Source of the DNA: Schmidtea nova | Lineage: Eukaryota | Direction of reading: 5' to 3' | DNA length: 64,000 bases | NCBI GenBank assembly: GCA_044892505.1 | Contig: CM097882.1 | Span: 183,024,001-183,088,000 of the forward strand | In this document: piece after piece, positions 1 to 58,392 of the stretch | Layout: each line of letters starts with the position of its first letter | Position numbering within the stretch: the first letter of the stretch is position 1 | The notes under the pieces: generated by a model | The model's database searches: none | What the model was told of the DNA's origin: nothing | What the model saw: the letters and a program-made list of their open reading frames with translations, nothing else | Made by a program: the position numbers and the translations under genes

Positions 1-715
1 CGTCTCCTTCGCACGCCCCTAACTATTCCCTAGCTAGTTAGGTTGGAACTGCGTGCGGTGGTTGAAAAATGATGGGCAGGTGAGCTCCATCGCTGGAACT
101 ACTCCCCATTTATTTTCACGGGTTCCCGCTGCCGCTAGAAGGTCTTACGCGTTATTCTCTCAATGTCTACGCTCAAATTCTTTAAAAAAATTAACAAACG
201 TCTTTTAAATAGAGATTTTATTTAGCTACAAACTCCTTACGCTATATAAAACCCAAAATAATGCGCTGCACCTTAAAATTATATTTATTTATAAAAACTC
301 TCGAAAATCTCCTTTACTTAAAATCACCGCTATGTCGTTGAATTGCTATGCGTAACAAAATCTATTGATCAAGTTCGTCTTGCTAACATTTTAATTCTGA
401 AATTAAATCGCTACATAAGATGTAAAATTCCTGTAAAACTCCAAAATTATCGCTGAAAAATGCGCAAACCTCAAAACCTATCGTTCAACACTCAAAAATC
501 CTATCACTATATGAAACCCTCAAAATCTATCGCAATTACCAAAACTATTCTCTATGTGTAACGATTCATTATGTGCAACCGAAAAAATATCCGAAAAATC
601 CCAGAATACATAAATTATAAAAAGGTACAACCGCCGTGTGAAGCAACGAGGCTCCACGATGACGGCTATGTCTCCCTCGCCGCGTTAGCAGCATAGGAAG
701 CATATCTATATAAAA
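1..715 (-). mobile_element. Diverged, shorter relative of the giant element's LTR (runs off the window start)
   Basis: Reverse complement of 629-700 matches LTR 22257-22328 (CTTCCTATGCTGCT.ACGCGGCGAGGGAG...CACA.GGCGGTT). Reverse complement of 1-150 matches LTR 24548-24690 (CCTTCTA.CGGCAGCG...AACCCGT...ATAAATGGGGAGTAGT...GCTCACCTGCCCATCAT). Confidence 0.7.
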
Positions 716-18800: not shown

Positions 18801-21800
18801 CATCCATAATTGCAAAACAATACATCCAGACCATTCATTAACACCATCCATATCTAATATCACATGCAAAATTTATTTAACTACAATGCACACACTACAT
18901 CATTTCATTCAACCACATCCATAAAATTCACACAAGAAATTCATTCATTAGCATTCACCAGCATCATACATCCAGAAAATCCCACAAATACTCAATCTGT
19001 CACTTATTTCACCCAACACACTATCACATACATTCACAACAATAAAACACGCATTTCAAATCTATAATAGTATACATACACACAAACGTATAACCACTAC
19101 ATCTCATATCATATATTGTCAGAATTCATTTCAAAGCCACCTCATGTCAAAATTCAACACTTGCATCTCCTATCATGCCATTACCACCAGAATTTCATCA
19201 AGTCAAACATTTCAGACAATCTACATCCACGTTCAACCACATTATTCATATTGGATCACCTCACTCATAAAATGTCAGTTATTTATTTATAAAGAAGTAA
19301 AAATAATTTCAGTTAAAATAAAATAAATAACTACAAATGCAATATTTATTTTGCTAACGATCTTTATTAAAAAAGTAAATCAAAATTCCAACTAAAATAA
19401 AATCAATAATTGCAAAAAATGCAATATTTATTTTACTAATTAACTTTATTAGAAAGTAAATCAAAAGGTATTTGTCAATTGAAATTTGTGAAATTTCCGA
19501 TGAAAACGGACGATCTGATGAATCGATAAGGAGGTCAGAGTTGGCCACTGAAAGTTTTTTTTGTTTGTTGACTTTGCCATTTCCTGGATAAATTCCATTC
19601 AAAAGCAGAGACTCGTGTCGAGTTATTAAACGATTATTTTGGATAATACCAAATCCTACTCTAGACAATCCTGTCCACTTGTATTCTCATGGTCCTGTAT
19701 GTATTATAGATAGTCTCTTCAACAGTTGACGAATTATTGCACAAAACTTCAGGATCTTCGTTACATTTAGATGACACATAGTTTTTAAGAGATGAAATTA
19801 TGCTTTCTAAATTCCGCATTCAATTAAGAGGATAATAGCATAATTTTTAAGCAAGTTATTCAATCCCATTCCAACAGAAAGCAATAGCGGATGTTTCGTA
19901 GGAAGATTCGTAAATGATTATAAGTTCAGTTATTCCTTTAGAATTAAGTAACTCCATTAACAGTTTAGGATTGACATTTTTTTGTGAGAATGATTGAAAA
20001 CATTGATCCTAGCTTCCGCATTCAGATACTATGGAAGTAATTAATTTCTGTTTATCAATTTTAATTAATAAATTAACTTGTTTTTTGTCAATAAATAACC
20101 TTTTATGGAAAATTTGAACAAGATTTAATGAATTAGAACAATGAGTTCGCATGCATTTTCCAACCAAATGCTTAGAGGAATTGAGTAGAATTCAAACTTT
20201 TTGAAGGTCGAATAGAGTTTTAAACAAACGAAATATTATCGGTAATTCAAACAAAGAAAAATATTTATATATATAAAAATAGGGAAAAAACCAAATTAGG
20301 AAATAAAATTATTTTTGTAATTTAAAAATTAAGGTTTTATTTTTTTAGCAGATTAAATTTTTCTTTTAGAATGTTTTATCTAATGATTACCATAAATTTC
20401 AATATTAGCAAAATTTAATGTTTGGTTAGTGTTTTTGATGCTCGGAATGATTCATTTGGATTAGATAATAAATTTATATTGATGTAGAATATTTATGTTG
20501 AATTGCCGATAAAATTTTATTGAGTGTTTATAGATAAATCGTTGAAGAAGGAACAAAATGTGCATTAAACCTTCTATCGGTAGCCCTTGGACCCAGGAGA
20601 TATTCGGTCAATCATAGTTTCGAATTTTCGACGCTCACTGATTGCGAATACCCACCCATTTGTTGCATTACCAACGTTATATTGTGACGGGCAACAAGAT
20701 GGTTAATCTAATGTTTTGTATGTTGAGTTGTTGATGTGAGCCATAGCAACTTCAAATTCATATTGACGGTCAACAACCCACCAATAGGTAAAAATTAACT
20801 AAAAGAAAAGTTAATATTTAAAATATGCAAACGCAAGAAGTAAACACGGAAAAATCACAATCAAAACAAATTAACAAAAAACTGATAAAAGAATTAAGTA
20901 AATATTAAAATTCAGAAAATTTTATAAATTTTATTAGTATAAATGTAAAAAATGCAAAATTAAATTGTAAAAATTAAATTTAAAGCAGTTAAAATTTAAT
21001 TAAAATAAAAAAAATTGATAAATATAACATTTATGTAAACAATGAATAAAATTTTACACATAAATATAAATTTATTTTAGTAAAAATTAAATATTTAACT
21101 TTTAAAATAAATTAAATAAAAAGAACATTCTAGAAAATTTTGTTTTACTAAATCAATTAAATTAAATGGTCTGAAAATAGTTTACATAGCAGTGCTATTT
21201 TCAGTCATTTTATACACTTTTCGAAAAACTTGGTTTTTTAAAAACTCTTGTTTGAAAAAAATACTGTTTTTTAGTTTGAAAATACTTTTAGAAGGATGAA
21301 CTCTACAACTAAATCGATGAGTCATCGCAATGCAGAATTTTTAAGGAATGGCATCATTCTGTATATACCGAGTATGTCAGTTTGATGTTTTACCCATCCT
21401 ATTAATTTTATTTGGCACCCGCCAATGCCATGGTTACCTATGTTTATGCTCATTTATTATTTCTCTGACGAAATAAATGTTTCAAATAAAAAAAATTAAC
21501 TTTTTCTCGATAATTAATCAAAATTCTGCATACATAAAAAATGAAATTACTTTTGATTTTTTTGTTCATTTTCTTGACCTTCTCAGTAGCTAACTTCTTG
21601 TGGTATCCGAGCTTGTTGTGATGTAGATAGTGTTGGGCCCGCCAAATCACCTAAAAAACACAAGGAACGAACAAAAGCATGAAACAATAAAGAAATAATA
21701 AAAATAAAAATAGCAAGAAAAACAAATTAAAAATAACAATAAAACGACAAATAATAATTAATAAATTTTCAGTAAAAGGAAATTTTGAAATAAACCGGTA

Positions 21801-21980
21801 AACAACCGCAAAGGGGGGCCTGAAATAAGAAAAAATAGAATTAAATAAAATAATAGTGCAAATAATTAATTAATTACTTGGAAAATCAGGACCACCCAGC
21901 GAGAAACCGGAAAAGGAAACAAAATAATGTTTAGATTAGATTAAAATAATAAAAATACTTTGAAGGACGGTCTGATCCTG

Positions 21981-22015
21981 ATTGGTCAATCCAACCAGAC
22001 GGATCAGTATAAATA
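21981..22015 (+). promoter_or_regulatory. Putative LTR promoter: reverse CCAAT (ATTGG) and TATAAATA
   Basis: ATTGG at 21981 and TATAAATA at 22008-22015, between an inverted CTGATCC/GGATCAG pair. This implies a short U3 of about 400 bp and a very long transcribed R-U5. Confidence 0.5.
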
Positions 22016-23052
22016 CCGATCCAAAAATCACAGACTTAGACGTTTACTTTTCACTCACAATCAAGACTAAACTTTGATTTGAGTAAATTTTTGAAAAAAC
22101 CGAATTTCATGCAAGGAACCACACATTCAAGTACGGAAGTAATTTTTTATGTTATCTTATATGATGTACCCATGATTTTTATTTAATTAAAATCTTATAT
22201 GTAAACGTTATTTGATCTTATTTTTCCTTTTTGATATTTTAATGCATATAGTTATACTTCCTATGCTGCTCACGCGGCGAGGGAGTCCGAGTCGTCGTTG
22301 TGGGGCCTCACGGTCTCACATGGCGGTTCAACCTTTTTATTGTTTTGGTTTTCATATTTAATTTGGTAGTTGAAATAATTAAATTACATCATTCGAATTT
22401 AACTAGATATTTATCAGCGAGATTAGAGAATTTTAATGCTTATTTAGTCGAGTAAAATTTTCAGTCACGAAATATCGATAATGCGAATACGTCCAGACAG
22501 TTTTCTGGCAATAAGTAAAAAAGTCATCATTTGGTTGTACAGGGGACGTAGCGCAGCGGGCGGTAGAGAAGGTCTAAGGAGATACCAAGAGGGGGTAAAG
22601 TACCCGATAGGTGTCAGGTACCCGAGACAAATGGGTTGACACGCTGAGGTTAAATTTGAGGACGAGAGAGCAGGTATAGCATGACAAGTTATAAAAACTT
22701 TCCAAGTAAATCGATCAAACTGATGAATTTCAATTGAGGTCAAGGTACAGGATATCGCAACTGCATGACAGAGATTAGTAAGACTGAAAATCATAAATTC
22801 TAAAAATACTTTAAATTCCAGTCTAATAAAACTAAAAATCTGTAATTCTAAAAATACTTTTATGCCGATCGCTGTACATAGCGCGGTAGCTCAAAATAAT
22901 CTTATCCTGATCGTCGTACATGGCGCAGGGAAACAAATATCTTATCCGACCGTGGTATATCGCGGTGATGGTTTAAAAATGAGATGGTATTAACTAAAAG
23001 GATTGAGATTAAATAGAATTTACATTTAACTCTTTATTAAATAAAATGACAG

Positions 23053-23529
23053 ATGCTGACATCGTTGAACGAAAGATTAACGCGGATTCGGAACTCAGGA
23101 AAGGAGGACAGGGCGAATGAATGGGCAAATCAGCTCAAGGAGTTGCCCCAGCCAATTCTGCGGACCATTAACGCCCAAGCATACAAGTGGCGGCAAGGGT
23201 TTGGTCGAAAGTGCCCGTTTTCCATCTGGGACGGAGGAAACGATATAATACTCTATCGAGGAGGACCGAACTGGCCGATTTCTCAAAGGCCGTACTCAAA
23301 CAAATTTGGCCGACTTGTCGTACTGATCAAGGACACAGATGGACGGACAAGCCGTGTAATTTATTGGGGGCATATCCCTCGTCGGGAACTATGCCAACTA
23401 GGTCTACACGAATTCCTACCGCGAAAACCGTTCGGCAAGGAGTGCCAGAAGGGACAACCCTCATTCTCTTGGGCTCGTCTTCGTCAGAAACCGATTAACA
23501 GCGAATTGCATAGTTTGTTTCGGAGATGA
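23053..23529 (+). CDS. LTR-encoded hypothetical protein A (158 aa), also at 49679-50155
   Basis: ATG directly after CAG; intact in both LTRs; GC-balanced composition. No recognisable domain. Confidence 0.45.
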   Translation: MLTSLNERLTRIRNSGKEDRANEWANQLKELPQPILRTINAQAYKWRQGFGRKCPFSIWDGGNDIILYRGGPNWPISQRPYSNKFGRLVVLIKDTDGRTSRVIYWGHIPRRELCQLGLHEFLPRKPFGKECQKGQPSFSWARLRQKPINSELHSLFRR

Positions 23530-23715
23530 AAACTGATTAACAAATGTTGAAATTGTGTTAAAATATTAGAGTTCATTAGTGCATTTTTGTTTTGTTGTTT
23601 TGAGTTTTGGTTTTGTGTTTTTAATAGTTCGTATTGTAACCTAATAATCCTATAATCAAATTTTAATTTTTCACATAATTTAATCATAAAGTAAATATCC
23701 TAAATAAATTATAGA

Positions 23716-24336
23716 ATGACCACCGATTTGATACAGAGAGAATTGGAAAAGATGTGGCGGATCCGGAGAGCCCAGGACAAAGAATTGGGTCTCCTCAAGG
23801 CACAATTGATCAAAGCAGAGGCACAGATCGCATACTTGCGCAAAAGCTGGTTTGCTCCGGCCCGAATGAAGGAGCAAATCAGTAAAACCGAGCGCGCCCA
23901 ACAGACTGCAGCCGATTACCAAATGGAATGGGAGGCCACAAGGATAGAACTCCGAAAATGCCTCCATTCCGTAACTGCCTCATATATTGAGAAAGAGCTC
24001 AGAGAGCAAATCCGTCCGGTTACGTACCAAGCGTGGACATCAGAAAAGAAGACGGTAAATTCGATTGGCACGGATGTCGCCGATCTAATCGAAAGTCGGA
24101 ATGAGACAGCTCCTGCAGCAAATGCAACCACCTCATCGGCGAATGCGCACCAGAAACGCAAGCGCATTGGGCAGAAACGGCGAAGACAGAGGAAATTATT
24201 TGCCCAGCAATTACAAAGCCAAGTAGATGGTCTACATCAGATGACCGAGGAGGCATTATTGACGGAGATTTTCCCTCCGGCTGGAGTTTTTTTCGGAATT
24301 GATGAAAACTTAAATAAAATTTTCGTGTTAATTTAA
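23716..24336 (+). CDS. LTR-encoded coiled-coil protein with Arg/Lys-rich motif (206 aa), also at 50342-50962
   Basis: Heptad-like N-terminal half and a KRKRIGQKRRRQRK basic motif. TTATAG|A-ATG context; AATAAA at 24397. Confidence 0.7.
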   Translation: MTTDLIQRELEKMWRIRRAQDKELGLLKAQLIKAEAQIAYLRKSWFAPARMKEQISKTERAQQTAADYQMEWEATRIELRKCLHSVTASYIEKELREQIRPVTYQAWTSEKKTVNSIGTDVADLIESRNETAPAANATTSSANAHQKRKRIGQKRRRQRKLFAQQLQSQVDGLHQMTEEALLTEIFPPAGVFFGIDENLNKIFVLI

Positions 24337-24788
24337 AATTGTTATCGTTCTTTTAAATGGATTTAATTAACTTTACAAATGATTAGATAAAGATAGAATA
24401 AAAGTATAAACTCATTTTACAAAATACCTAATAGAGATAAATAAATAATTAAACGAGCATTTGTTGAAATACTTCTTGCAGAATGAGAGAGGTTAAAGAT
24501 AAATTTACTGAAAGATATTGCGGAACACCCAAATAGATGATTAAAGCATAAGTCCTTCTAACGGCAGCGATGAACCCGTAAACATAAATGGGGAGTAGTA
24601 CTAGCGATAGTGCTCACCTGCCCATCATTGTTTAACCACCCTGCGCATCACCAACTTGGTTATACAGGGAAATAATCAAGGGCGCTTGAGTGTAGAATTG
24701 CAATTTTGTGCATGATCATGGATGAGGGAATCCCTAGTCATTGTTAGAGCATTTTTCATCTAACCCCTCCATGAACCCAGCATAAATT

Positions 24789-24806
24789 TGGGGGCTCAGC
24801 CGGGAT
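24789..24806 (+). promoter_or_regulatory. Primer-binding site, tRNA-Pro-like
   Basis: TGGGGGCTCAGCCGGGAT, 6 nt after the LTR end; 16/18 identical to the tRNA-Pro PBS TGGGGGCTCGTCCGGGAT used by MLV. Confidence 0.85.
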
Positions 24807-25112
24807 CAACTTCGTTTTATCGGAAAAATGTAAACGTAAAATCTGCAGAGAGGTTTAAAATGCTCGGGTCAATTAATTTAATAAAAAACAGAAAGGTTAT
24901 AATTAAATATAAATTATTGTATAAAAATTAAATAAACAACACGGCAGTGAACAAAAGTGAATTTAGAAATTAAAATGCATGCATAATTTGTCGGGACGAC
25001 AATTTTCGGAAACACGGGGAGGATTGATAAATATCAAAGATACAAAACGAAACATATTACTACTTTAAAAATGATAAAAATAACAGAGTTAAAACGATTA
25101 TTTATTTAGTAA

Positions 25113-25574
25113 ATGGAGGAAAAACTGAAAGAAATTGAAGAATTTCTCAACACAGAAAGCGAAACATTAGAAACGATTGGCAAGAAAATAAACCGATTTA
25201 GAGAAATTGAATTTCAGGAACCCACAACACAGACTGAGGAAACAGAGGAATTAATAAAGATAACAGAGAGAACAAGAAAAATCGACATAAAGACCCGCTA
25301 CAAATGGTACAGAACACGATTAGAAAACGCAGAATTAAATATTAAGTGCAAGCAAATAGAACAACAATTAACCTCAACATACAATCAATGGAGGGCGCAA
25401 GGGGTAGAAGCAGCGAAAAAATACCGACAGTGCTATATATGTGGGGATAGCGAGATACAAATTATGTTTTTACCTTGCGGACATTTTCGTTTTTGTAAGA
25501 TATGTGCCAGCAAGTGCGACCTATGTCCTATGTGCAACCTGAGGATAGACGATAAAATTATTGTATATTTATAA
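25113..25574 (+). CDS. Coiled-coil plus C-terminal C3HC4 RING protein (IAP/MDM2-type RING)
   Basis: CYICGDSEIQIMFLPCGHFRFCKICASKCDLCPMCNLRI at the extreme C-terminus. No BIR motif seen. Confidence 0.85.
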   Translation: MEEKLKEIEEFLNTESETLETIGKKINRFREIEFQEPTTQTEETEELIKITERTRKIDIKTRYKWYRTRLENAELNIKCKQIEQQLTSTYNQWRAQGVEAAKKYRQCYICGDSEIQIMFLPCGHFRFCKICASKCDLCPMCNLRIDDKIIVYL

Positions 25575-27308: not shown

Positions 27309-30300
27309 TTGAGAACAGGAGTAAAGAGTGTCGTAATAAAGCCAACAGAAAAGAAAGTCGGCAGTGAGAGCAATAAAAAAGACAAAACTAGTACTACAAC
27401 AAAAACAACAAAAAAGCAGAAAGCCGGCAAAGATAACAACAAGAACCCACAAGGGAGTAAAGCGAGGAAAATAATAAGAGATAAAGCGATTATCGAAAAC
27501 GATAAATTGTCAGTAGTAAGCAACAGTTCAAGTAACAAAGAAAACCAAGCAGAACCCAAAGAGAGCCAAACAAGTGAAATAGAAGTAGACGAAACTAATA
27601 ACGATAATATAGAAGAATTAGAGAGTGAAGTAGAACAAGAAGTAGAAATCAACGAGAGCGATAACGATAGTATAATATCAGATCACGAAGTAATAAGAGA
27701 AACAGAAAGCGATTCAAGCTCGAGTAAAACGGAAGACGAACATAACAACGAACTAGAAACAAGAGGAAACGAAAGTAAAATAACTCAAGACAGCGGAATT
27801 GAAATGGGTGAACCAAGAGAAGAAATAAAGGATAAATTTTCAGGAGAACCGTTTAACGGAGATGCGAGCAAATTAGAAACCTTTTTAAAAGAATTTGGCA
27901 TATTCGTGGAGGTATGCAAGTGGAAAGCTGAAACAACGGTAAGCAGAATTCAGTTATATTTGAAAGATAGTGCATTGGACCTATATTTGGAAGCGAAAAA
28001 TGGTACCAATCCACCTACAAGCTGGACAGCGATAAAGGATTTTTTCCAACAAACATTTGGAATAAATAAAGTGCTGAGCGAGGCATTCATAGAATTCTCA
28101 ATGAGGAAACAAAAGATGAATGAATCTAATGCGGTATACGCGAGCGAACTGAAAAAATTAGCAAAATCGGTATTCAAGGATGGAGGTCCAATAAACGAGG
28201 AGTTAATGGCAGCCATCTTCATAGGAGGATTAAGAAGACCCGACATAAGAGCACAAGTGGGATGTCAAGGATGCAAAACCATAGATCAAGCGTTAGAAAC
28301 AGCTAACCGATTTGAATTGCATATGATAGGAAGCGAAGGCAGAATTTATTTAGCCATGGACACAGCGCAAACCGAACCAGAAGTAAATCTCAACAATCAT
28401 ATTCCAAATTCGCAACAATTAAACCGACCACCCCCTCAACGAAGGAATGAAGGAAATAAAGTGCAGAACTTTGAAAATCAAAACAATTACAACCCTCAAA
28501 GACAAACAAAACAATGTAAAACATGCGGGAAGTTGGGACACTGGCAGCAAGAATGCTATCAAAATTTGAATTGCGGAAAATGTGGAGTCAAAGGACACTC
28601 GGAAAGCAGATGTTCTACAATAATCTGTTTTAATTGCGGACGACCTGGTCACTATTCAAGAAATTGCGGACAAAAAAGTAATCAACGAGGAAACTGGCAG
28701 AGTAATGGGAACCGACCAAATTACGGAAATCAAGCAAATACCGTAAACCGACCAGATTATGGGAACCAACAAGTCAATAATAACAATAATCAGAACAAAA
28801 CCACCCCCAAAGAAATACATTTAATGCAAGAAGTCCAAAGATTGACGGAACTTATAAACAATACGACGAGAGGAAATCCGCAAACCAATCAACAGCAAAT
28901 TAGCATGATGAGAAAAATAGAAAGCGAAAACGAACGATTGAATCGAGAAAGTCAAGCACGACACGCTCAGGAATGGGCAAGAATACAAAGAGAGGATGAA
29001 CAAAAACAGCAAGAAAGAGAACGACAACCTCTAAGAATTAACATGCTAAGAGCAACAAACCAAACAGACACTCGCGAGAAAGAAACCACACTGGAAATGA
29101 ATTCGATAGACCCGAATCCAGCCGACAACGAAAGTCGAAAAGAAATAGTACAAAAAGATGAAGAAGTAGAAAAAGAAGCAGAAAAGGGAGAGGAAACCGA
29201 GATAAACCAGGAAGAGAGAAGAAAAATTTGGAAAAAAGGAATGATGGTAATCATGCCCAACGACCATATGTTTCGATTCCAATATAACGCAAAAGAAAAG
29301 GTGGAAATACTGTTCAATAAAGTAAACCAGATGATTCCAGGAGTGACAAAACTGCCCAGAGAAGCGTTCTTACAAATAGGAGATGCACCATCAGTAAAAT
29401 TGAAATTAACGGATATATGGGAAAACATGGGAGTAGTAGAAACAAAAAGAAATGTGATGAGAATTAAAGAAATAGAACCAGAAGAAATACCACCACCAAT
29501 ACGTCACGAAACCCGAATCCGGCGAATATTTGAAGGAAAAATGATAAGAAGACGTTTAAAAGAGATAGACGAGTTGGGAAAGAAAATGGAAAAAGTCGAA
29601 GTAATAGAGGACAAGAGTGAACCAACACCAGAAATTGACAAAAACGAACCAGAACCAACGGAGAATATACAAGGAGAAACGAACCAAACAGCACATATTA
29701 ATATGTTAAGAAATACCACCAGAGAGTTTTCCGATGAAGAAGAAGATAGTGATATCAGTAGCCTAGCAGGAGACATATTAAACGAATCCGAAGACGAAAA
29801 TAAAGAGAGAGAAGTAATAAAGACCTCAGAACCTACACAGATAAAAGTAGATGAAATCCAGAAATTACTAGATAACTCGCTAGAAGTAATATATAACGAA
29901 GAGTTCATGGACAAGAAACAATATCGGAAATTCATGAAAGCATTATTACAAATGAACTACAAAGAATGGTTACAAGACCGGGAAGTAGACATGTTGAATC
30001 GATACGTAGGGAAATTAATAGAGGAACCACTTCTCAATTACACCATCTCAATAATAATAAATACATCTACACCAAGAATCTGGATCAAAACTCCATTTAC
30101 AGATGATATCTACAGATGGGTAGAGGACAGACTAGGGAGTTCATATAAAAACAAATTCATCTATTCGCAGAATAGACTCGTAAAGAAAAGAACGCACTTA
30201 GTAGAAACAGGTATATGGCCAGGAGAAATAACCCTATTATCAATATGTGATGAAAAGGAAGAAGAAAACCTACAAGAAGTTGCAAGGGAGGCAAACACGT

Positions 30301-32669
30301 GCTTCGAAAGGAGAATAAAACCTCGGTTAGAATACGAGAAAGAACGAGTCTTACGAAAGAATCTAAATTCCCTGATAGAACAAATCATACCACAAGTCAA
30401 AAAACATAGAAAAGAGTTAATGAGAAGCGAATACGAGAAATTGAAACGATGTATTGAGTGCATACGTGACACAAGTCACACGAGATGGTCACAAATCTCA
30501 CACGATAAATTAATCGCAAAAATGGGAAAAACAATGTTTAGACAAGGGAAAATAACAGATCTAAAAATTTTAGTAGAATTGCCTAACGAAGACACCAAAG
30601 AAATCGAAGTGGTAGCGGACTGCACCATTAAAGAATTAATAAATGTCATCAACGAGACACTAGTGCAAAGAGAACCAGAAGACGAAGGGGAAGACGACAT
30701 AATCATACAATACAACGAACATGTATTATGGGATCACGATGAGAGACGACTATATAAAATCGGTATATGGGATAATCACCAAACCATCCACGTTAGCAGA
30801 ATGGACGATACACCAAGAGAAACTGCTAAAGACGAGAAAAAAGAACGGGAACGACGGAAAGAAGTTGTGCGCAAATTACAACAAATAGTAGAAATTTATC
30901 GAAATTGGCGAATTTGGCCAGAGTGGGAAAATGTATTAGAAGAACTCAATCTCAACAGACGAATACGAACACCCGTAGAAAAACAATGGAACGAGAAAGG
31001 AAAATGTTGGGAACCAAAAGAAGGGGAATATGAAGAAGAATATAAAAGAGGAATTGAAGATGACTGCGAACCAGAGATGGGAAGGGTTTGCATGGTGACA
31101 AGGAAAGCTACGCCAATAGACCTAGATGGACCAGAAACCGCGGCTATGTGGTTGGAAAGGGAAAAGCAAAAAACGGAAGAATTTGTCGAAATATTAAAAA
31201 CTAATGCGCACGGTAAGAGAAAAGTAATAAAGGGTCTCGCAGATTTTTTCGTGGTAAATGGGGAAGATATAACATGCTTGCGTAAAGTAGCAAAAGCAAT
31301 CGCGGAATATAAAAGAGTTAACGAGTGGTGTCCGGAACAACTAGACCATGTAATTAGGAAATGGAGAAACCAAGAATTCTCGCAGGAAATTCCACAGAAA
31401 GTACATTTAAGAATAATATACCCAAACAAGGATAAGGAAGAGTTGTGGGTAGGAATAGCAGAAAAAATTCGAGATATTAAAAAGAAATTGAGATACGAAC
31501 CACCATTCCATTTACAACACCAAGGACGATCATTAGATAACAGTTTGGAAATCGGAATAACACCAGCACAATTAGACCTCATGAATACCTTGACAGTAGA
31601 AGCAATAGCGGGTCAACCATTGAAACGTAAAGAAGAAAACCATAAACCACACGGAAGTATAAGTACGCCGAGCCCGATGAAATCAGCACTAACACCAGGG
31701 ACAAGTTCGAGACGATCTGAGACAACACCCAGAGGAAATAGAGAAAGGACTCCACCACAACCATACGACGTGGACGAAATTTTAACGGATAGCGACGATA
31801 TGATAGAAGAGTTAACCGAATTAACAAGGGAAAAGGACGATAACATTTTCGAAAGAATACAGGAACTACCTACGACAATACAAGTAACTAACACCGGAGA
31901 AGCAGAAGTCGAAGAAGAAATAATAATAGAAGAAGTAAACGATTTGATAGAAGACGAAACGAGAGGAGCGAATGTCGAAAATGTACAATTAACGCAAGAA
32001 ATGGAAAGATGGTTAGAGGAAAGAGCTAACGAACCAAGAGATGTTACGGAAGAAACAGGACGGGCAACAAGGTTCGTGGAAACAGGTACAGGAATGGATA
32101 AACGACCTAGAGGTAGACCTAAGACAGACCCAGCGAATATAGTTATAAGAAATAAAGATGAAAAGAGACAAGATCAATGGGAATTATGCCTAAGGAAACT
32201 AAATAAAATTGCGGAGATGAAAGAAAAAGAGACAACACCAATATGTCAAGGGGAGGAATGGATATCGAAAACAATAATGGAAATATTGGCAATAATTGAT
32301 CCGGAATTAAGAAAATACTGGCGTATAACTGAGATAAGCGAAAAGGCGAAGTCACTACACAGCGCAATCGCACCCATCTTACCGGAATTCATAAAAGAAA
32401 AGACGAAGTCAAACCATTTAGACTGGCAAGGAACCACTACGTTAATAAAGAAACTGACAGAAAGAGCGGAAACGGATAACAAATACGTAATAGCCATTGC
32501 ATACACGATATACAATCTGTTGACATTGAGTAGAGGTCGACCAAAACCCACTGCATTAGAGAGACATATAAAAAATACCGCAAAGATTATAGCTAGAGAA
32601 ATAGAACCCTACGTCATTAACAAAGGAGGATGGGAAACATTTATAAAAACTAACCAGAAGAAAACATAA
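27309..32669 (+). CDS. gag: Extended Gag polyprotein: acidic/basic N-terminus, capsid-like region, 3 CCHC zinc knuckles, ubiquitin-like modules, C-terminal Bcl-2-like domain
   Basis: FSGEPFNGDASKLETFLKEF capsid-like start; CKTCGKLGHWQQEC, CGKCGVKGHSESRC and CFNCGRPGHYSRNC; BH2-like YVINKGGWETF. The track start is TTG and the first ATG is at 27804, so the true start is uncertain. Confidence 0.9.
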   Translation: MRTGVKSVVIKPTEKKVGSESNKKDKTSTTTKTTKKQKAGKDNNKNPQGSKARKIIRDKAIIENDKLSVVSNSSSNKENQAEPKESQTSEIEVDETNNDNIEELESEVEQEVEINESDNDSIISDHEVIRETESDSSSSKTEDEHNNELETRGNESKITQDSGIEMGEPREEIKDKFSGEPFNGDASKLETFLKEFGIFVEVCKWKAETTVSRIQLYLKDSALDLYLEAKNGTNPPTSWTAIKDFFQQTFGINKVLSEAFIEFSMRKQKMNESNAVYASELKKLAKSVFKDGGPINEELMAAIFIGGLRRPDIRAQVGCQGCKTIDQALETANRFELHMIGSEGRIYLAMDTAQTEPEVNLNNHIPNSQQLNRPPPQRRNEGNKVQNFENQNNYNPQRQTKQCKTCGKLGHWQQECYQNLNCGKCGVKGHSESRCSTIICFNCGRPGHYSRNCGQKSNQRGNWQSNGNRPNYGNQANTVNRPDYGNQQVNNNNNQNKTTPKEIHLMQEVQRLTELINNTTRGNPQTNQQQISMMRKIESENERLNRESQARHAQEWARIQREDEQKQQERERQPLRINMLRATNQTDTREKETTLEMNSIDPNPADNESRKEIVQKDEEVEKEAEKGEETEINQEERRKIWKKGMMVIMPNDHMFRFQYNAKEKVEILFNKVNQMIPGVTKLPREAFLQIGDAPSVKLKLTDIWENMGVVETKRNVMRIKEIEPEEIPPPIRHETRIRRIFEGKMIRRRLKEIDELGKKMEKVEVIEDKSEPTPEIDKNEPEPTENIQGETNQTAHINMLRNTTREFSDEEEDSDISSLAGDILNESEDENKEREVIKTSEPTQIKVDEIQKLLDNSLEVIYNEEFMDKKQYRKFMKALLQMNYKEWLQDREVDMLNRYVGKLIEEPLLNYTISIIINTSTPRIWIKTPFTDDIYRWVEDRLGSSYKNKFIYSQNRLVKKRTHLVETGIWPGEITLLSICDEKEEENLQEVAREANTCFERRIKPRLEYEKERVLRKNLNSLIEQIIPQVKKHRKELMRSEYEKLKRCIECIRDTSHTRWSQISHDKLIAKMGKTMFRQGKITDLKILVELPNEDTKEIEVVADCTIKELINVINETLVQREPEDEGEDDIIIQYNEHVLWDHDERRLYKIGIWDNHQTIHVSRMDDTPRETAKDEKKERERRKEVVRKLQQIVEIYRNWRIWPEWENVLEELNLNRRIRTPVEKQWNEKGKCWEPKEGEYEEEYKRGIEDDCEPEMGRVCMVTRKATPIDLDGPETAAMWLEREKQKTEEFVEILKTNAHGKRKVIKGLADFFVVNGEDITCLRKVAKAIAEYKRVNEWCPEQLDHVIRKWRNQEFSQEIPQKVHLRIIYPNKDKEELWVGIAEKIRDIKKKLRYEPPFHLQHQGRSLDNSLEIGITPAQLDLMNTLTVEAIAGQPLKRKEENHKPHGSISTPSPMKSALTPGTSSRRSETTPRGNRERTPPQPYDVDEILTDSDDMIEELTELTREKDDNIFERIQELPTTIQVTNTGEAEVEEEIIIEEVNDLIEDETRGANVENVQLTQEMERWLEERANEPRDVTEETGRATRFVETGTGMDKRPRGRPKTDPANIVIRNKDEKRQDQWELCLRKLNKIAEMKEKETTPICQGEEWISKTIMEILAIIDPELRKYWRITEISEKAKSLHSAIAPILPEFIKEKTKSNHLDWQGTTTLIKKLTERAETDNKYVIAIAYTIYNLLTLSRGRPKPTALERHIKNTAKIIAREIEPYVINKGGWETFIKTNQKKT

Positions 32670-32678
32670 GCCAAGAAT

Positions 32679-35600
32679 ATGAAAAAGAAATTCGAAAAAA
32701 TATTGGAAGAGTTAGAAAAAGAACAAGCAGGAACAGGAAACGCAAAGTCATCAATGAATCTGAGTGCCATAATAATGATGATGTTGATTTGGATGATTAG
32801 CACCGATAGCGCAACAGCATTCGAAGTGTTTGATTGCGACCAAATGAAGTTAGGAGAAAAGTATTCATTGAGAGGTACGGAGCAATGCAAAGATGCAACT
32901 CCAGTAGAGTTGCAAAAGATTAAAAAGGAACAATGGTACCACGTGTATCAAGAAGCAGAACTCATAAAGACAATGGTGAATGAATGTAAAGTGCAGAAGA
33001 CGAGATTCGCATTCTACTGCGGGAGAGGACATTATTCAGCAATTGTCATGCCAGGAACGGAAAGAGAACCAATCGTGTTACAAGGAGAAGACTGCGAAGC
33101 ACTGTTTAAACATGGAGAAGTAACAACAAGGGATAAAATCAAGATAAGAGGAAAGCCAGGAATGATGATGCAACAGACGTACTATGTAGCAGGACGGATT
33201 ACGGGAGGAGAAGGATATTGTCAAGGCGAAACCTACCCGATATTCGGAGTACCCGCAACCAACTTAGTGGTGATGGATACGTATATAGTCGAACTAAAAA
33301 GCTACGAAGCATTCTTCGAACCAACAACGGGAGAAATGAAAACGTTATCCATGTGTAAAATCGACAGGAGCATGTGTCAAACGGGAATGTCAACATTAGT
33401 GTACAAACCAAAGGTGAACGAATGTCAATTACAACTGCTACAAGGAGCACAGTTCGACGAAATCCAAGGAAAAACGTTTCAGGAAGAAGACGATGACGAC
33501 AAAGCTAGAGCAAAGCATCTCAAGGAAGCTTTGGAGAATAAAAGACAATTGAAACCGGATCATAGAGAAAAACGGATAGAGATGAGAGCCACACCAACAG
33601 TGTTGATAACCACAAATCAAGATGTGGGAATGAGATTCATAAAAGGGAAAGCAACCCTTAAGTGTAGTACAACGGTATATGAAACGAATTACCCAGGAAT
33701 ATATGTGTCAAAACAAGAAGTGCCAAATGCGAAACCCAAAATCGACACAATGGATATCAAACTACACTTGTATGTGAATAATAAAATGGATTTCCTATTC
33801 CATAGAGGACAAGCCTCATTACAAAAAGTGTATTACGATCTGATCAATAACGATTGTATACTGAATCGAGAAATACTAAAGACAAAATTGGCCGTAGCAA
33901 TTACGAATCCCGATAGCGCGATGCCATTATTACCACTGAGAGAAGGACATTTCGGAAGAGTGGTTGGAGAAGCAATGTATGTATACATCTGCGAAAAGAC
34001 ACACGCATCGCTAGCAGCAACAACACAGTTGAAACCTGGAACCTGTACAAATGAGTTAGAAATCGATTACAAAGGAAAAGTACGATACGTTCAACCGGTG
34101 ACGAGAATCATCAATCCACCAGGGTTTGAACCAAATCCATTCAACTGTAGTAATGCGTATGGACCGCTTTATCAGAAACCAGATGGTAAATGGGTTATGT
34201 TCCCAGGAAGATCCGAAGTGATAGCACCAAGAGAATTCGAGCTAATGCAGTTGTCAAAGGATAGGCAATTCAGCGACGTAGATGTCTCAAACAATGGAAT
34301 ATATAGTCCGAAAGATTTAGAAGCAGCAAGGCAGAATATATTATTCCCAGCAAGAAGAGAAGCATTACTGTCAAATATCGTAACGATAACGGGAGGAACG
34401 GATTATCGAGAAGGACCGAATTATGAACTATTGTTGTCACCAGCACATTTCAAGAAAGCCACAGAAAATATGATGAAAGCAATGTGGGGAAGATTTTTGA
34501 TATTCGGACAAATGATGGCCGGAATACTGGGGGTCATATTAATAATCCAAATCGTCAGAGTGATAATAACGCAAATGCTCGCATGTTTCGATATCTACAA
34601 GAGAGAAAAGAAAGTGAATTGGAAAATGGTAGTAGGGTTTTTACCATTCCTTGCGAAAACGATGGTGTTACACGGGCACTCAAAAGATATCCACCGAATA
34701 AAAAGACTCCTAAAGATATTAGCAAAAATGAAGGGAACAGATGAAGAAGTAGGACGAAAATTTAAAAAGATAATGAATGATGAACAAGCAAGACAACAGC
34801 TCAAGAGAGAAAGAAAAGGTTTATGGGAGAGGATGAAAGGATATAAAACCCAAAATGATTCGAGTGACGACGACGATGACGATGACGACTATAAGGGAGG
34901 ACAGGTGTATAAGAACCAAGCACCACAATACATCGAAAAGAATCCAGCCGACGCATGGAAATGTTACGCACCTCCACCAACAATGTATCAAGAACCACTA
35001 CAAGGAGGAAAAAATAGCACGATGCAAATGATGCCAATGACAAATGTATATCCCATGATACCAGAAGATTATAAAATGAGAAGATGTAGAAGCGTAGATC
35101 CACAAGGGGATACACACACGATCGCAGTAATGTCATCAAACACAGGTCCAGTATTAACCACGACAATAGAGATTAACGGAAGGGAAATCGAAGCAATGAT
35201 CGACACGGGAGCAAACATTTCCGCCATCGACATCAAATGGATACCACAAGAGCAAAGACGAGAAATAGAAAGGACAAACGTCCATGTAATTGCATGTAGC
35301 AAAGAAGTTGTAGAAGTAGCAGGAAGATGGTGGGTAAAAATACGCCATTTAAACACGGAAATCGATACGTACGTAGCTGTCATACCAGCATTAAGCGTAC
35401 CTTGCATTATCGGAACAGATTTGATGCCAGCACTATTTAAAGAGATTGTAATCGATCTTGGAACAATGAGACTAAAAGATCGCACCGGACAAATATGCGC
35501 AATAGAAGCCAAAGTGACAAGTTCAAAGCAAATGATAATACCCGCAAGAAAGGAAAAAATATGTTATGTAAAAATAGATCCAACAATCCAAGGGGATATG

Positions 35601-38600
35601 ATTTTCGAACCAAGTAAGAGATTCGAGAAAAGAAAAGCGTTGCCAATGGCAAGAGGACTAGTTAACATAAACGATGATGGAGAAATCCCAATAAACGTAG
35701 TAAACTTCGATGAAGAGGACAAAATAATATACGAAAACGAAAGATTAGGTAAATTAACCCCAATGATGGATATCGAACTACCAATAGAAGGAGCAGAGAA
35801 AGATAAAGAACCAACCTGGAATATTGATAGTGAATTATTAAACGAGGATCAAAAGAAGCAGTTAGAAAAACTTTTGATGGAGTATAAGGATATATTTGCA
35901 GCATCCGATTTGGATCTAGGAACATGTGATGTCACACTACATACAATACCATTAACAGATGAAACACCAATTGCATTAAGGCCGTACAAATTAGCGGAAG
36001 CACAGAAAGCAGTAGCAGAAGCAGAAGTGAAGAAAATGTTGGATGCAGAAGTAATCGAACCAAGTTGTTCACCCTGGCAATTTCCAGTGGTAATGGTAAA
36101 GAAAAAAGACGGAACACAGAGATTCTGCATAGACTATCGAAGATTGAATACAGTGACAAAAAGGGATACTTACCCATTACCAGACATTAATGAAATGCTA
36201 TTAACATTACAAGGAGCAGCATATTTTACGTCGTTAGATCTGAAAAGCGGATATTGGCAAATAAAAATGAAGGAAGAAGATAAGGTGAAAACTGCCTTTA
36301 CCATCGGGAGAGATTTATATCAATTTCGAAAAATGCCATTTGGATTAACGAACGCACCAGCATCATTTCAGAGATGCATGAATTTCGTCACCCGTGGAAT
36401 AAAGCAGTGTATGGTCTACATAGACGACTTATTAATTTATTCTAGCACGTTTGAACAACACATACAGGATATTCGAGATGTATTCGTTAGGCTTAGACAA
36501 TGGAAGTTAAAACTCAAGCCATCAAAATGCGATTGGGCAAAAGAAAAGGTTACATTTTTAGGACATATAGTGTCAGCAAAAGGAAAAGAACCGGATCCCA
36601 GAAATATCGACAAAGTAAAAGAATGCCCAGTACCAAAAACAATAACCCAAATACAAGAATTTCTCGGACTATGTGGATACTATAGAAAGTTTATAAAAGA
36701 TTACGCTGGAATCGCAAAGCCTATACAGGAACTGGTAAAGAAAGATGTATCATTCATATGGGGAGATGAACAACAAACAGCCTTTGAAACATTGAGAGAT
36801 AAACTGATAACCGCACCCATATTAGTACACCCAGACTTTAAGAAGCCATTCTTACTTGCAACGGATGCAAGCGGATATGCAGCAGGAGCCGTATTAGGAC
36901 AATACGACGACGAAGGAAAAGAACGGGTAATCGGATATTATAGCCGAACATTCAAAAAGCACGAGAAAAATTACTCAGTAACAGAACGGGAAGCATTAGC
37001 AATTATATTAGCTATTAAACACTTTAAATATTTACTATGGGGTCACATCATTTGCATAACAACAGATCACCAACCGCTTGTATGGTTAGGACAGCACAAG
37101 GAAACATCCAGTAGATTAATGCGATGGGCAATGCAGTTACAGGAGTACTCACCAGACATAAAATTTAAATCAGGAAAAGCGAATGCGAATGCAGATTGTA
37201 TGTCAAGACTGACATTTCCGGAATTAACCGATCCTGATGTACAACGAATTTGTGTGTTAATAGCGGAAGATTTAGATTTTAGTGAGTTAAAGAAAGATCA
37301 ACAGGAAGACAAAGAATTGGGACAGATCATAGAGTTCCTAACGTCTCGAAATATGGAGGTATTTAAGGATAATAAGGAATTAAAGGAACATATAGGAAAA
37401 TATCAACATCGCTACATAATAAATAAAGGATGGTTGTTAATACAAGACGGGGAAAAGAGATTGATGTGTTTACCGGAAAACAGAAGGAAAGAGATAATGA
37501 TCAAATACCATGATGGGAAATTGGGAGGTCATATGTCCGAGAAAAAGACCATAAATCGTATGAGACAAAAATATTATTGGCGAACAATGGAAGAAGATAT
37601 AAAGGAATGGATTAAAAATTGTCTAACTTGCGCAACCAGAAAGGATAGTGGGAAGAAATGGAAGAACCCGCTACAACCAATGCCGATACCAGCAGAGCCA
37701 ATGACAACTATAGCAATGGACGTAATAGGACCACTACCAGAAAGTTTAAACGGAAATATTTATATATTGGTAATAACGGATTATCTGACAAAATTCCCGG
37801 AAGCATTTGCCATGCAAGATCAAAAAGCAAAAACCGTAGCAAAAATTTTGGTAGAAGAAATATGTTGCAGATACGGAACTCCAAAACAAATACTCACAGA
37901 CCAAGGAACTAATTTTATGAGTGAGTTATTGAACGAGGTGACAAACTATTTCAGAATAGCAAAATTGAGAACTTCACCATATCACCCGCAAACGAATGGA
38001 CAAACAGAGAGATTCAACGGTACATTGATTAGAATGTTATCAAATTACGTCAGCAGACACCAAACTGATTGGGACGAATACATAAAATTATGTTTAATGG
38101 CATACCGAATGTCGATACATGCAGCAACAAAACTAAGCCCATTTCAACTTATGTATGGAAGAGAATGCAACATGCCCATAGATTTAGAGTATCAGCCACC
38201 ATTATCACAATATATGGAAGACGACGACTACGTAACCAAATTCAAAGAAAGAATGCAGGAAATATGGAAAACGGCAGAACTCAACATTAAATTTTATCAG
38301 GAAAGTTATAAGGACTTACACGACCAGAAGAAAAATGTTAAAGCGAACGATCTAAAACCAGGAGATTGGGTGATAATAGAAACTCCCGAAATAATACCAG
38401 GAACAGTTAAGAAACTCCAAAGACCTGGAAGAGGACCTTATGAAATTATATACAAAAAGGACAATAATGTCAAAGTTAAGCTAATAAATCGACCGTTAAT
38501 ACGACCCATATATGTAAACACCTGCAGATGTAAGAAGGTGCCTAAAACGATAACTACAACACCAGAAAATCGAATAATAACTAGATCACAAACAGCCAGG

Positions 38601-41600
38601 ATAAATATGCTCAGAGCTAATGTAACTGAAGACGACAAAGCAGAAATAAGGCAAAAAGAAATCAGAAACAAAGAGATCATATTGAAGGCGAGAGAAATAA
38701 TGGGAAGATGGCATGTTAGAGACGAAGCAGGCATATCAAGGGATATTAGACATATGATTAGCCGTTACGCACAAGGATTACCAACCGAACCAATTATTTC
38801 TGAATTATTGGAAAAAATCCCTGAAATACTCTTATTGAAAGATGTAGGAGGACAACCAGCCTTACATAATGCGATAGAGTGTAAAAACATTGAAAGAGCA
38901 AAAGAATTCCTAAAAATCGCAAAAGAAACAAACCAAAACTTGGACGTAGGGAATCGGGAACAAGAAACTCCATTAATGACAGCCGCAATCCACCAAGCAG
39001 ATAAAGAAATGATAGACCTATTGATAAAAGCTCATTTCAGTTGGACAGAACGAGATAGAGAGGACAAAACAGTGCTAAATCACGTAATATGGAGTTCTCA
39101 CCAACCAATGCTGAAATACATAATAGCTAACTCCACTTGGGAGATAGACGAACTAGTTAAAGGAGACATTATCAAAGAGGCAATCAAAATTGGTAAATGC
39201 AACACGATCCGTAAGTTAATCAAATGGAAACGACCAGAAGATGATACATGGGTCTTAGACATAAACGAAGTATACAGCGAAGGACAAAACGCACTGTTAA
39301 GATACCTTTTGAAATTTACTTGTGATCAGAAGACATTACTAACCTTATTAGACAGAGGAAACATAAACATCACAAAGAATGAAGAAGAATACAAATTCGA
39401 TAAAGAGAAGGAAGCCTTATTCAACAAGATTAGGAAATGGTGTGCGAAACCACTTGATAAACTAATAACATACAAAGACATAAACAATTTTAACGAGAAA
39501 TACCAGACGATAGTAAGCGAATATGAGGAATTAGTAAAAATCTTAAACCATCCCGAAAAATGCAAACAGGTTTTAGAGAAAAAAGAAAGAGAAAGTAACA
39601 AGAAACTCACACCACTCTTCAAAGCAGAAGCACCATACCAAGCTAGACTAGATGCGATACAAGAAAAAGCAAAAGAATTGTTACCGGAATTCGAGAATAG
39701 TAAACATGCACTGGAAATACTCGGCGCATTAGTTGAAAAAGTACACGCATACGCAAAAGGAACATACAATGGTAACGACATAGTAATAATAAAAAAGGAA
39801 ATGCCAGTAACATTCCTATTACCAAAAGACGGAATAATGCCCATACATAGAGCTCTACGAAATGGCAAAGATAGGAAAGTAATGGAAATTGCAAGAGTAA
39901 TGCTAAATTGCGGAAGCAATATGAATATGATAGACGAGAAAGGAGATACACTTATGGTATTTGCAGCAAGGGCCAAAACGAAAACAAAGGTATTAGAAGA
40001 ACTATACAAAGCAGGTGCAGGACTTACAGGAAAGACAGATAAAGATAATTCGATATTAGATGTAGCATTATTAACACACAATTGGGAAATGGTCAATTTC
40101 ATTAAAACCGTCCCAAATCAGGAAGAAATAGATCACCTAACTGATACGGTCAAGAAACCCAGTGTACTAGCAATGATGAACAACGTCGAACTAACAGAAT
40201 CAATACTTACGTGGATAAATCCTAATACTAACGAACCAGCATTCAGGATTAATAAATTTACAGAACATAACCAAAACTGGTGTATAAGAAGTGCCTTAAT
40301 AACGTATAAATGGCCAGAGATATTGAAGATGTTTATGGAAAGAAAGGATCTAAGAATCACAACCAGCCCGAAAGAAGAAAAATACACAGGCAAATGGAAA
40401 GAATTGATGAAGACATACATCAACAATTGGATCAAGGCCAAAAAGGAAATCTTGGAATATAAATCCACTAACAAAGTAATACCGGAGCAGGTAGAAACAC
40501 AAGAATTTGAGGCAAGCAATCTAACGACATTAGCATATGCAAAATTAATAGAAGAAATCAATGTCGAGGACGACATTTTCGACGAGCCAGGGGGAGATGA
40601 CAACACAGATAGTGACGACGATAACAACTCAGAAAATTCAAGCGATCACGAACCACCCGATAAAGAGGAAAACGAGAGAAAAGACAAGAAACGAGACAAG
40701 GAAGGAAAGAAAGGTGAAGACGAAAAACAAAGAGATGAAGAGAGAGAACAAGGAACAAACGACCAAGGAGATAAAAATGACACCCAAAGAACAGGTTATA
40801 AATCAACTATAAAACCATTCTTCAGACCAGAGTTACTATTATTAACAGTGATTTTAACGTTAATTAATCCAAGTCAAGGAATGACATGTGAAGAAAGGGC
40901 AATAATACAAATAAAAAACGCAAAAGGAATCGAACGAGTATGTTGGTCGAAAAAGGACAAAATCACGGAACAAAATAGCCCGATGGATTGCAGAATCTCA
41001 GAACACGAGCAAGAAATCATAGAGATCAACGACCTAGATCTAGATACCTGGTACAAAATATGCACCGTTAGGAAACAAAAGCATCCAAGATCACACAACA
41101 CAATCGCATGTGCAAAATACCAAACACCTAAAGCAGCCATGACAATACAACAGTCACCCAAAGGAGATTACATCCTCGGAAAATGTGGAAGAACAGAGAC
41201 ACAGGGAACAGAAAACAAAAAACCCCAGGCAATAGATAAGCAAACAACACCAACCCTACGAATTACAATAAAGAGGCCCGAAACAAGAATTGCCACAAAC
41301 GAAACCGAAAGAGTGTCTTACCAAATGGAAGTATTATGCTTAGCACTCATACTAATAATAATAAAACGATTAGAGGAAGGAATAGAAATTGAAACTATGA
41401 CAATAACAGAAGTAGAAGATACACAGAATACTAACATAAAATGTTGGGCGAGGAATAACGAGGAAATCGGCGTAAATGAAATAAGGAAAAGTCGAAAACC
41501 AACAACGAATAAAGTAATTAAAGTATCCAAAGTAAAAGCAGATAAGACGTACAAACTATGCCTACTAGAAAAAGAGACAAACAAGAAAGGTACCACAAAA

Positions 41601-48053: not shown

Positions 48054-48226
48054 ATATTATGATAACTTATCGAACTATTGTGACAAATCATTACATTTTG
48101 ACTATTTAGTGACAAACCTTATGATATGTATAAATTCGATCACCCTATGTGATTTTTTCTTTGCATGTATAACTTTATAAAACTTTTTATGGATGATGAA
48201 AATAAGTAGTTATGTATAATTAATTG

Positions 48227-48256
48227 CGGGACGCAATTTTAGGGGTCCCCGGGTGA
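48227..48256 (+). promoter_or_regulatory. Atypical polypurine-tract region before the 3' LTR
   Basis: CGGGACGCAATTTTAGGGGTCCCCGGGTGA|TGTTGGG: the usual Gypsy CGGGAC..AATTTT plus G-tract layout, interrupted by a palindrome. Confidence 0.5.
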
Positions 48257-51200: not shown

Positions 51201-51408
51201 CCCGTAAACATAAATGGGGAGTAGTACTAGCGATAGTGCTCACCTGCCCATCATTGTTTAACCACCCTGCGCATCACCAACTTGGTTATACAGGGAAATA
51301 ATCAAGGGCGCTTGAGTGTAGAATTGCAATTTTGTGCATGATCATGGATGAGGGAATCCCTAGTCATTGTTAGAGCATTTTTCATCTAACCCCTCCATGA
51401 ACCCAGCA
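48257..51408 (+). repeat. 3' LTR (3152 bp)
   Basis: Colinear copy of 21631-24782, followed by TSD ATAG. Confidence 0.97.
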
Positions 51409-53362: not shown

Positions 53363-53667
53363 TATTAGCAGCAACGATCTCAAATTCGTTTTCGGCATCC
53401 ATTAAAAATTAAATCAGCAACAAAATTTATTAAATTTAAAACTTCGCTTTTTTTTCCAAATATTTAAACAAAAACTTGAAGGCTATTCTTCTGTAATTCT
53501 GATATTGATTCAAATGCTGGATAATTTTTAAATAAGAATTAACATATATTTTAAGATTAATTTAATTAATTAATTTAAGATGTTTAAATAAAAATTTATG
53601 AAATCTGACAAATACAATTTAAATGTTTATTAGCAATTTTAATTTAAACGTGAATTCTACCCTTTCA
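53363..53667 (-). repeat. 3' LTR of the compact Gypsy
   Basis: Direct repeat of 58088-58392, preceded by the PPT. Confidence 0.93.
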
Positions 53668-58127: not shown

Positions 58128-58392
58128 TAAAAATTAAATCAGCAACAAAATTTATTAAATTTAAAACTTCGCTTTTTTTTCCAAATATTTAAACAAAAAC
58201 TTGAAGGCTATTCTTCTGTAATTCTGATATTGATTCAAATGCTGGATAATTTTTAAATAAGAATTAACATATATTTTAAGATTAATTTAATTAATTAATT
58301 TAAGATGTTTAAATAAAAATTTATGAAATCTGACAAATACAATTTAAATGTTTATTAGCAATTTTAATTTAAACGTGAATTCTACCCTTTCA
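58088..58392 (-). repeat. 5' LTR of the compact Gypsy
   Basis: Direct repeat of 53363-53667, followed directly by the PBS. Confidence 0.93.

Follow-up and report, generated by a model that had tools for sequence, protein, structure and literature searches.

HIV and the yeast Ty elements offer well-studied examples of structured primer-binding segments. In the accessible text of PMC3675109, the HIV-1 anti-PAS is placed at nt 48 to 55 of the tRNA, a segment that is freed when the primer anneals at the PBS (primer binding site), and a cis stem may mask the primer activation signal (PAS) beforehand. The available parts of two other sources give a predicted HTLV-1 PAS 10 nt from the PBS (PMC11251516) and, in a review, PAS elements found across retroviruses (PMC11181671). 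Within the literature searched, largely without subscription papers, we found neither an RNA fold in Burro LTRs nor a structured primer-binding segment for animal gypsy or Burro elements. Here, we analyzed a 64,000-nt stretch of the Schmidtea nova genome (contig CM097882.1; the window), in which an initial annotation had noticed a GNRA hairpin near the 3' end of an LTR. The block in question does lie inside an LTR (21631 to 24782) and recurs in the 3' LTR, and it is a selected RNA structure.

The fold is present in both LTRs of a giant Burro-like gypsy element of 29.8 kb (21631 to 51408, plus strand), bounded by a 4-bp target duplication, ATAG. Its 5' LTR (3,152 bp; 21631 to 24782, plus strand) differs from the 3' LTR (48257 to 51408) at a single position and, given this near identity and the flanking duplication, the insertion is recent. 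A Gag ORF with a zf-CCHC Pfam domain (27804 to 32669, plus strand) is followed by a polyprotein of 3,867 aa (32679 to 44282, plus strand) with the Pfam order fusion glycoprotein, protease, RT, RNase H, integrase, and ankyrin, and accessory ORFs carry RING and TRAF/MATH domains. The planarian Burro/GYPSM1, in the part of its description available to us (PMC6431247), is also ca. 30 kb long, with an env-like fusion glycoprotein between gag and pol, and has RING, MATH/TRAF, and ankyrin domains, while the window element differs in its separate Gag ORF, which ends 10 nt before the polyprotein, and in the location of TRAF downstream of pol. The same part of that description (PMC6431247) mentions no LTR RNA structure. 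By its size (ca. 30 kb), its PR-RT-RH-IN order, the env-like protein between gag and pol, and the accessory RING, MATH/TRAF, and ankyrin domains, the predicted element matches Burro/GYPSM1, the comparison being with the published description of these elements.

Genome searches by DNA and by pattern gave 1,768 first-look candidates for the window block, 627 exact matches to one subgroup pattern, and then groups of increasing divergence. We took ca. 250 copies and, by eye and with patterns, assigned them to groups A to H and J, plus a single copy K (the labels are our own). Conservation starts sharply at 24546 and extends to the LTR end at 24782; thus, the initial annotation was right to describe a conserved, structured block but not in its extent (24548 to 24690). 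The group A fold is 60 to 80% identical to exemplars of groups B, C, D, G, H, and J, and the 170 nt upstream of it are 48 to 59% identical between groups, i.e., at the level of shuffled sequences (51 to 55%). Selection on the fold is clear across LTR families that cannot otherwise be aligned. In group B and in group E, one element of 11 to 12 kb has a Gag-like protein as its sole ORF (ca. 50% identity over 356 aa), lacks any match to pol, and keeps the fold in both LTRs as well as the PBS; an element of group D shows matches to gag, pol, and accessory parts along its whole length. The 11- to 12-kb pol-less derivatives with only the Gag-like ORF (L259-L260 and L261-L262) are high-copy, and the group B pol-less copies are ca. 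98% identical and therefore recently mobile. An exact-pattern scan of viral contigs gave no match to the fold, and a single metagenome pattern match was dismissed as chance, being inside an apparent bacterial gene and devoid of the other parts of the fold. The fold is a reliable marker for Burro LTRs and their pol-less derivatives, and the thousands of natural variants in one genome make a covariation-grade model and direct tests possible.

Other features were seen in the LTRs and around them. Two Pfam-negative ORFs (158 and 206 aa) lie in each LTR of the element (23053 to 23529 and 23716 to 24336, repeated at 49679 and 50342), and diverged homologues of both occur in one group D LTR. CCAAT-like and TATA boxes are found at 21982 to 22016, ca. 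380 nt into the LTR. A TATA word upstream, at differing distances from the fold, is common to groups A, B, D, and G, which suggests that the fold lies well downstream of a predicted start site; a TATA-like word at the 5' edge of the fold appears in group H and in one G copy and is absent from the other groups. A second conserved LTR block (22246 to 22353 on the plus strand and 604 to 711 on the minus strand; 79% identity between A and B) reads as two hairpins and was not found in the tested groups other than A and B. Before the 3' LTR (48222 to 48256) there is no plain polypurine tract; a hairpin with a 3-nt loop, common to groups A, B, D, and E, occupies this place, and after it comes a GC-rich, palindrome-like word. 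In A and D, ATCCCTA can pair with the region ahead of the 3' LTR; in B and E, this pairing is absent. The window also holds an unrelated ordinary gypsy element (53363 to 58392, minus strand) with identical 305-bp LTRs and gag and pol ORFs, which lacks the fold, and just upstream of the window there is a group C Burro-like element (L061-L062) with internal deletions in gag and pol.

The structure was derived from an alignment of 47 genomic copies belonging to nine groups (42 of the 45 found copies, and five group H copies added by hand), a sequence-only alignment in which register is lost for some helices of H and J. The whole fold (24546 to 24782, plus strand) is a multibranch domain closed by stem P0 and followed by a terminal hairpin, P8. 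P0 (24546 to 24552 with 24705 to 24711) is 85% paired and present in the minimum free energy (MFE) structures predicted for exemplars of B, C, D, E, and F3, with the weaker support of one-sided (wobble) variation only. Inside it, the small hairpin P1' (24554 to 24564; CC-TTCTAAC-GG), with a T-loop-like 7-nt loop starting with UUC, is paired at both of its pairs in 45 of the 47 rows, with both sides changed in six rows, all of group H. P1' competes with P1 (24561 to 24564 with 24576 to 24579), a helix broken in group H that would cover part of the word GAACCCG (24572 to 24578). Next comes a rod (24580 to 24633) made up of P2 (24580 to 24584 with 24629 to 24633), P3 (24588 to 24592 with 24621 to 24625), a near-invariant internal loop (24593 to 24596 and 24615 to 24620), and the GNRA hairpin P4 (24597 to 24614). 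The second arm (24637 to 24692) comprises P5 (24637 to 24646 with 24682 to 24692), a conserved internal loop containing CCAAC (24647 to 24654), P6 (24655 to 24662 with 24673 to 24680), and the loop L6. P8 (24716 to 24722 with 24768 to 24774) displays ATCCCTAG in its loop (24730 to 24737). All these parts are on the plus strand, as is the identical fold copy in the 3' LTR (51172 to 51408), behind which there is no PBS. A group B copy lies on the minus strand at 1 to 152, cut off by the window start and with no PBS after it; in a self-comparison of the window, it aligns to the block over 102 nt with 85% identity.

Support for the structure was measured with a profile HMM and direct pair counts, using slid and shuffled controls. 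Over the 47 rows, 85.2% of the cells of the fuller structure (58 pairs) are paired, versus 36.5 to 45.0% in six slid controls, and both sides change in 32 of the 58 pairs, counts that overstate the independent compensatory events because the copies come from one genome and share ancestry. Covariation of this structure was 0.330, versus 0.185 ± 0.006 in shuffles, and further pair types showed no excess (88 versus 89.9). RNAalifold independently predicted P3, P4, P5, and P6, with compensatory changes in 17 of 21 pairs. A terminal stem of the P8 type, of differing sequence, folds in 23 of the 25 copies given (no end was found for the other two) and is weak in several old copies. Single-sequence folding is modest, with z-scores of -1.3 for the window copy, whose MFE structure lacks P0, P5, and P6 as drawn, and of -0.6 to -3.8 in ten exemplars. 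It is on the plus strand that the G-U pairs and GNRA loops make sense; folding of the minus strand did not exceed that of shuffles. Invariant columns are concentrated in the two internal loops.

The hairpin singled out by the initial annotation is P4, and both its sequence and its position (AGTACTA-GCGA-TAGTGCT, 24597 to 24614) were as given, as were those of its counterpart in the group B relative (AGTTCCA-GCGA-TGGAGCT, 83 to 100, minus strand). Between these two, both sides change in two of the seven pairs (A-U to U-A and U-A to C-G). Adding copies, which had been named as a way to refute the hairpin, strengthened it instead: P4 is 90.6% paired, with compensatory changes in four of seven pairs. 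The flanking ATGGG/CCCAT pairing is likewise real and covaries, both sides changing in four of its five pairs. The loop, on the other hand, is not invariant as had been thought, since it is GNRA in 38 of the 40 non-H rows (GCAA in 17, GCGA in 9, GTAA in 7, and GTGA in 5) and 5 nt long in all seven group H rows. Because one group lacks the GNRA loop, the hairpin itself is read as probably a structural cap. A pseudoknot had also been proposed; one is likely, although elsewhere, between AGGGA of L6 (24666 to 24670) and TCCCT of the P8 loop (24731 to 24735). At least 5 bp can form in 34 of the 47 rows, with a mean score of 13.0 versus 8.8 for shuffled segments; pairing within the own group is no better than across groups and there is little true covariation, so that this loop-loop contact is considered likely on the basis of conservation and a few compensatory cases.

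The PBS (24789 to 24806, plus strand) is complementary at 18 of 18 positions to the host tRNA-Pro(UGG) gene plus CCA. It starts 6 nt after the LTR end and 175 nt downstream of the hairpin, in keeping with the ca. 170 nt first estimated. Behind fold copies, the PBS is of the tRNA-Pro type in every case where one was seen, and no family using another primer tRNA turned up among them; none was seen behind copies of groups G, H, and J, the search behind group H LTRs giving no match. PBS and LTR are usually 0 to 3 nt apart. The spacer here (24783 to 24788) is of 6 nt in the groups with a PBS seen and of 7 nt in copy L141. The host tRNA-Pro genes form large tandem arrays with a 308-bp period (L132, C1 at ca. 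459.6 Mb), with 1,106 exact pattern matches genome-wide.

A further link to the same tRNA comes from GAACCCG, ca. 210 nt from the PBS, which is the exact complement of CGGGUUC in the T arm of host tRNA-Pro. In each of the eight named groups tested, including H with its broken cis partner P1, no other word is as common at this position; GAACCCG is kept in at least half the rows in seven of nine groups and is without a conserved partner within the fold. Subfamily-level variants in D/E copies (GGACCCG in 12 of 37 and GAATCCG in 5 of 37) keep the tRNA pairing through wobble, which would preserve the match for five of the seven possible transitions. The tRNA-Pro target overlaps the location of the HIV anti-PAS (nt 48 to 55). 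In dinucleotide-shuffled tRNAs, a match to the conserved 7-mer was found anywhere in 3.75% of 400 and 4.8% of 20,000 shuffles, at the T-arm position in 0.6%, and jointly with a second 6-mer in 1.2%; the match was noticed before it was tested, and these are post hoc chances, of 0.6 to 5% overall. The match is short (7 nt), its distance from the PBS far exceeds the 10 nt of the predicted HTLV-1 PAS (PMC11251516), and the CCCG of GAACCCG could instead pair with the CGGG of the PBS itself. Its location upstream of the PBS and its complementarity to the T arm (5' strand) of the primer make GAACCCG, we infer, a candidate primer activation signal. The 6-mer match of CCCTAG to the D loop, taken alone, was set aside, since it is at chance level (reached by 41% of shuffles) and is also explained by the pseudoknot.

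We propose, as the most likely reading, that in the genomic RNA of the element the ca. 240-nt fold may act as a platform for primer loading and for the initiation of reverse transcription; we see the balance for and against it as about even. This reading starts from what is directly observed, namely, the helices and constant location of the fold, the match of the PBS, and the persistence of the fold in pol-less families, and every functional step added to them is one that we infer from sequence. Transcription from the upstream TATA box (ca. 22008) would place the fold in the 5' leader, where P0 and P8 would bring the upstream arms beside the PBS. Annealing of the tRNA 3' end would then free the 5' strand of the T arm to pair with GAACCCG, as with the HIV PAS. 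The near-invariant internal loops and the L6 pseudoknot might be contacts for Gag/NC or RT, or might hold the architecture. A more elaborate version, which we regard as quite doubtful, is that the fold acts as a tRNA-decoy switch for primer loading, in which its own T-loop-like hairpin and a D-loop-like L6 would be displaced by the real tRNA-Pro. The mimics would occupy the segments complementary to the T arm (GAACCCG) and the D loop (AUCCCUAG), and strand exchange with tRNA-Pro would displace them, giving a built-in RNA switch for the start of reverse transcription. In several group H copies, L6 reproduces 9 nt of the D loop of tRNA-Pro exactly. Structures of this general kind are expected at such a position; only proof of the decoy switch or of catalysis would make the finding more than moderately surprising.

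The main rival to the primer-loading reading is that the fold is chiefly a packaging or dimerization signal, in which Gag/NC binds the internal loops and selects genomic RNA and the tRNA match is incidental. We consider it possible, if somewhat unlikely. The clustering of invariant columns in the two internal loops speaks for it, as does the retention of the fold by pol-less families, which must be packaged in trans, and the pseudoknot and palindromes near the PBS of Ty1 are candidate packaging or dimer signals in the accessible part of PMC3592414. Nevertheless, no palindrome of at least 6 nt was found, by eye and by loop words, to be shared by the loops of all groups, i.e., the conserved loop palindrome of a kissing-loop dimer is absent across them; a signal wholly within the LTR would also be present on LTR-only or spliced RNAs and make a poor selector; and GAACCCG is left unexplained. 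Packaging and primer loading can coexist. It is less probable that the fold governs the fate of the RNA, whether by promoting nuclear export of the long unspliced form, by letting translation start internally behind the LTR ORFs, or by masking a poly(A) signal. The polyA hairpin of HIV masks such a signal, and here ATAAA lies at the P2/P3 junction in groups A to F (as AATAAA in B, E, and F) with the U-rich 3' strand of P2 downstream, but the hexamer is missing from G and H. Two ORFs do precede the fold inside the group A LTR; however, the next ORF is 330 nt off and gag 3 kb off in the window element (more than 5 kb in group B), and no Rfam IRES or export element was matched.

Hammerheads process retrozyme RNA at terminal repeats, and a new self-cleaving ribozyme processing the RNA of the element at both LTRs would be in line with the multibranch fold, the likely pseudoknot, the invariant loop nucleotides, and the presence of hammerheads in the host genome. 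This we hold to be highly improbable, and the sequence gives it no positive support. The initial annotation had matched the structure to no known ribozyme, and nor did we: Rfam searches gave no match in the window at gathering scores, none in 21631 to 25200 at E values up to 10, and, over eight loci at E values up to 5, two weak matches, both outside the fold. The core motifs of hammerhead, twister, and pistol (CUGANGA, UCCNAAG, and AAAUAG, respectively) are absent from 24544 to 24782. Moreover, were both LTRs cleaved at one and the same site, strand transfer would lack its terminal redundancy and a 27-kb coding RNA would lose its cap, and we favor a replication signal over a ribozyme because the fold adjoins the PBS. 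We give scarcely any credence to the remaining alternative, the switch of the initial annotation, in which GGCAG/CTGCC would pair as an alternative to the ATGGG/CCCAT rod. Although 91% of the cells can pair and C-to-U changes in G and F3 keep wobble pairs, this pairing, counted together with CCCGT/ATGGG, covaries as shuffles do (0.104 versus 0.106), with one compensatory cell in 469. It is also broken in group H, whose rows are the 7 of 47 with the A-U pair unpaired and which changes two 5'-strand positions with no change in CTGCC, while P3 covaries. As a conserved feature, the switch is largely refuted.

Several likenesses to known RNAs were tried and rejected. Group II intron domain V has an AGC triad at the base of a GNRA hairpin and a 2-nt 3' bulge; here, the only RAGC words, at 24544 and 24747, lie beyond the rod, and the internal loop is asymmetric on both strands. 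GCGATGAACC/GGGGAG resembles Kt-7, but a K-turn would require the CCCGT/ATGGG pairing, which is without covariation. Likenesses to hatchet, pistol, HDV, the cobalamin riboswitch, HCV IIId, CTE, and xrRNA came down to short words in the wrong order, all Rfam-negative. Separately, ca. 360 nt beyond a group H LTR (L207, 2095 to 2163, plus strand) lies a motif resembling a hammerhead; its core words look intact, it scores below the Rfam gathering threshold, and it is the only one found among the loci examined.

Compared with the best-described systems, as far as the accessible parts of the sources go, the fold shares with the HIV-1 PBS segment a structured region, putatively U5 here, next to an 18-nt PBS, and with the HIV-1 PAS a short motif that can pair with the T arm on its 5' strand and that a cis stem may mask (PMC3675109, PMC11181671). 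Unlike HIV-1, the motif here has 7 nt and lies ca. 210 nt upstream of the PBS, in a five-arm domain with a likely pseudoknot and in a gypsy element; the likeness shown is one of position and motif. In the available text on Ty1 and Ty3 (PMC3592414, PMC5371799), LTR retrotransposon RNA contacts the T and D arms of the primer outside the PBS and, in Ty1 (PMC3592414), a pseudoknot is found near the PBS, whereas the window element has a full 18-nt PBS, its extra matches upstream within the LTR, and tRNA-Pro as primer. Retrozymes and hammerhead retroelements, in the portion of PMC6431247 available, resemble these families in carrying a conserved RNA motif in each terminal repeat and in having small pol-less derivatives; the fold described here differs from theirs in lacking a hammerhead core and in being present in large coding elements.
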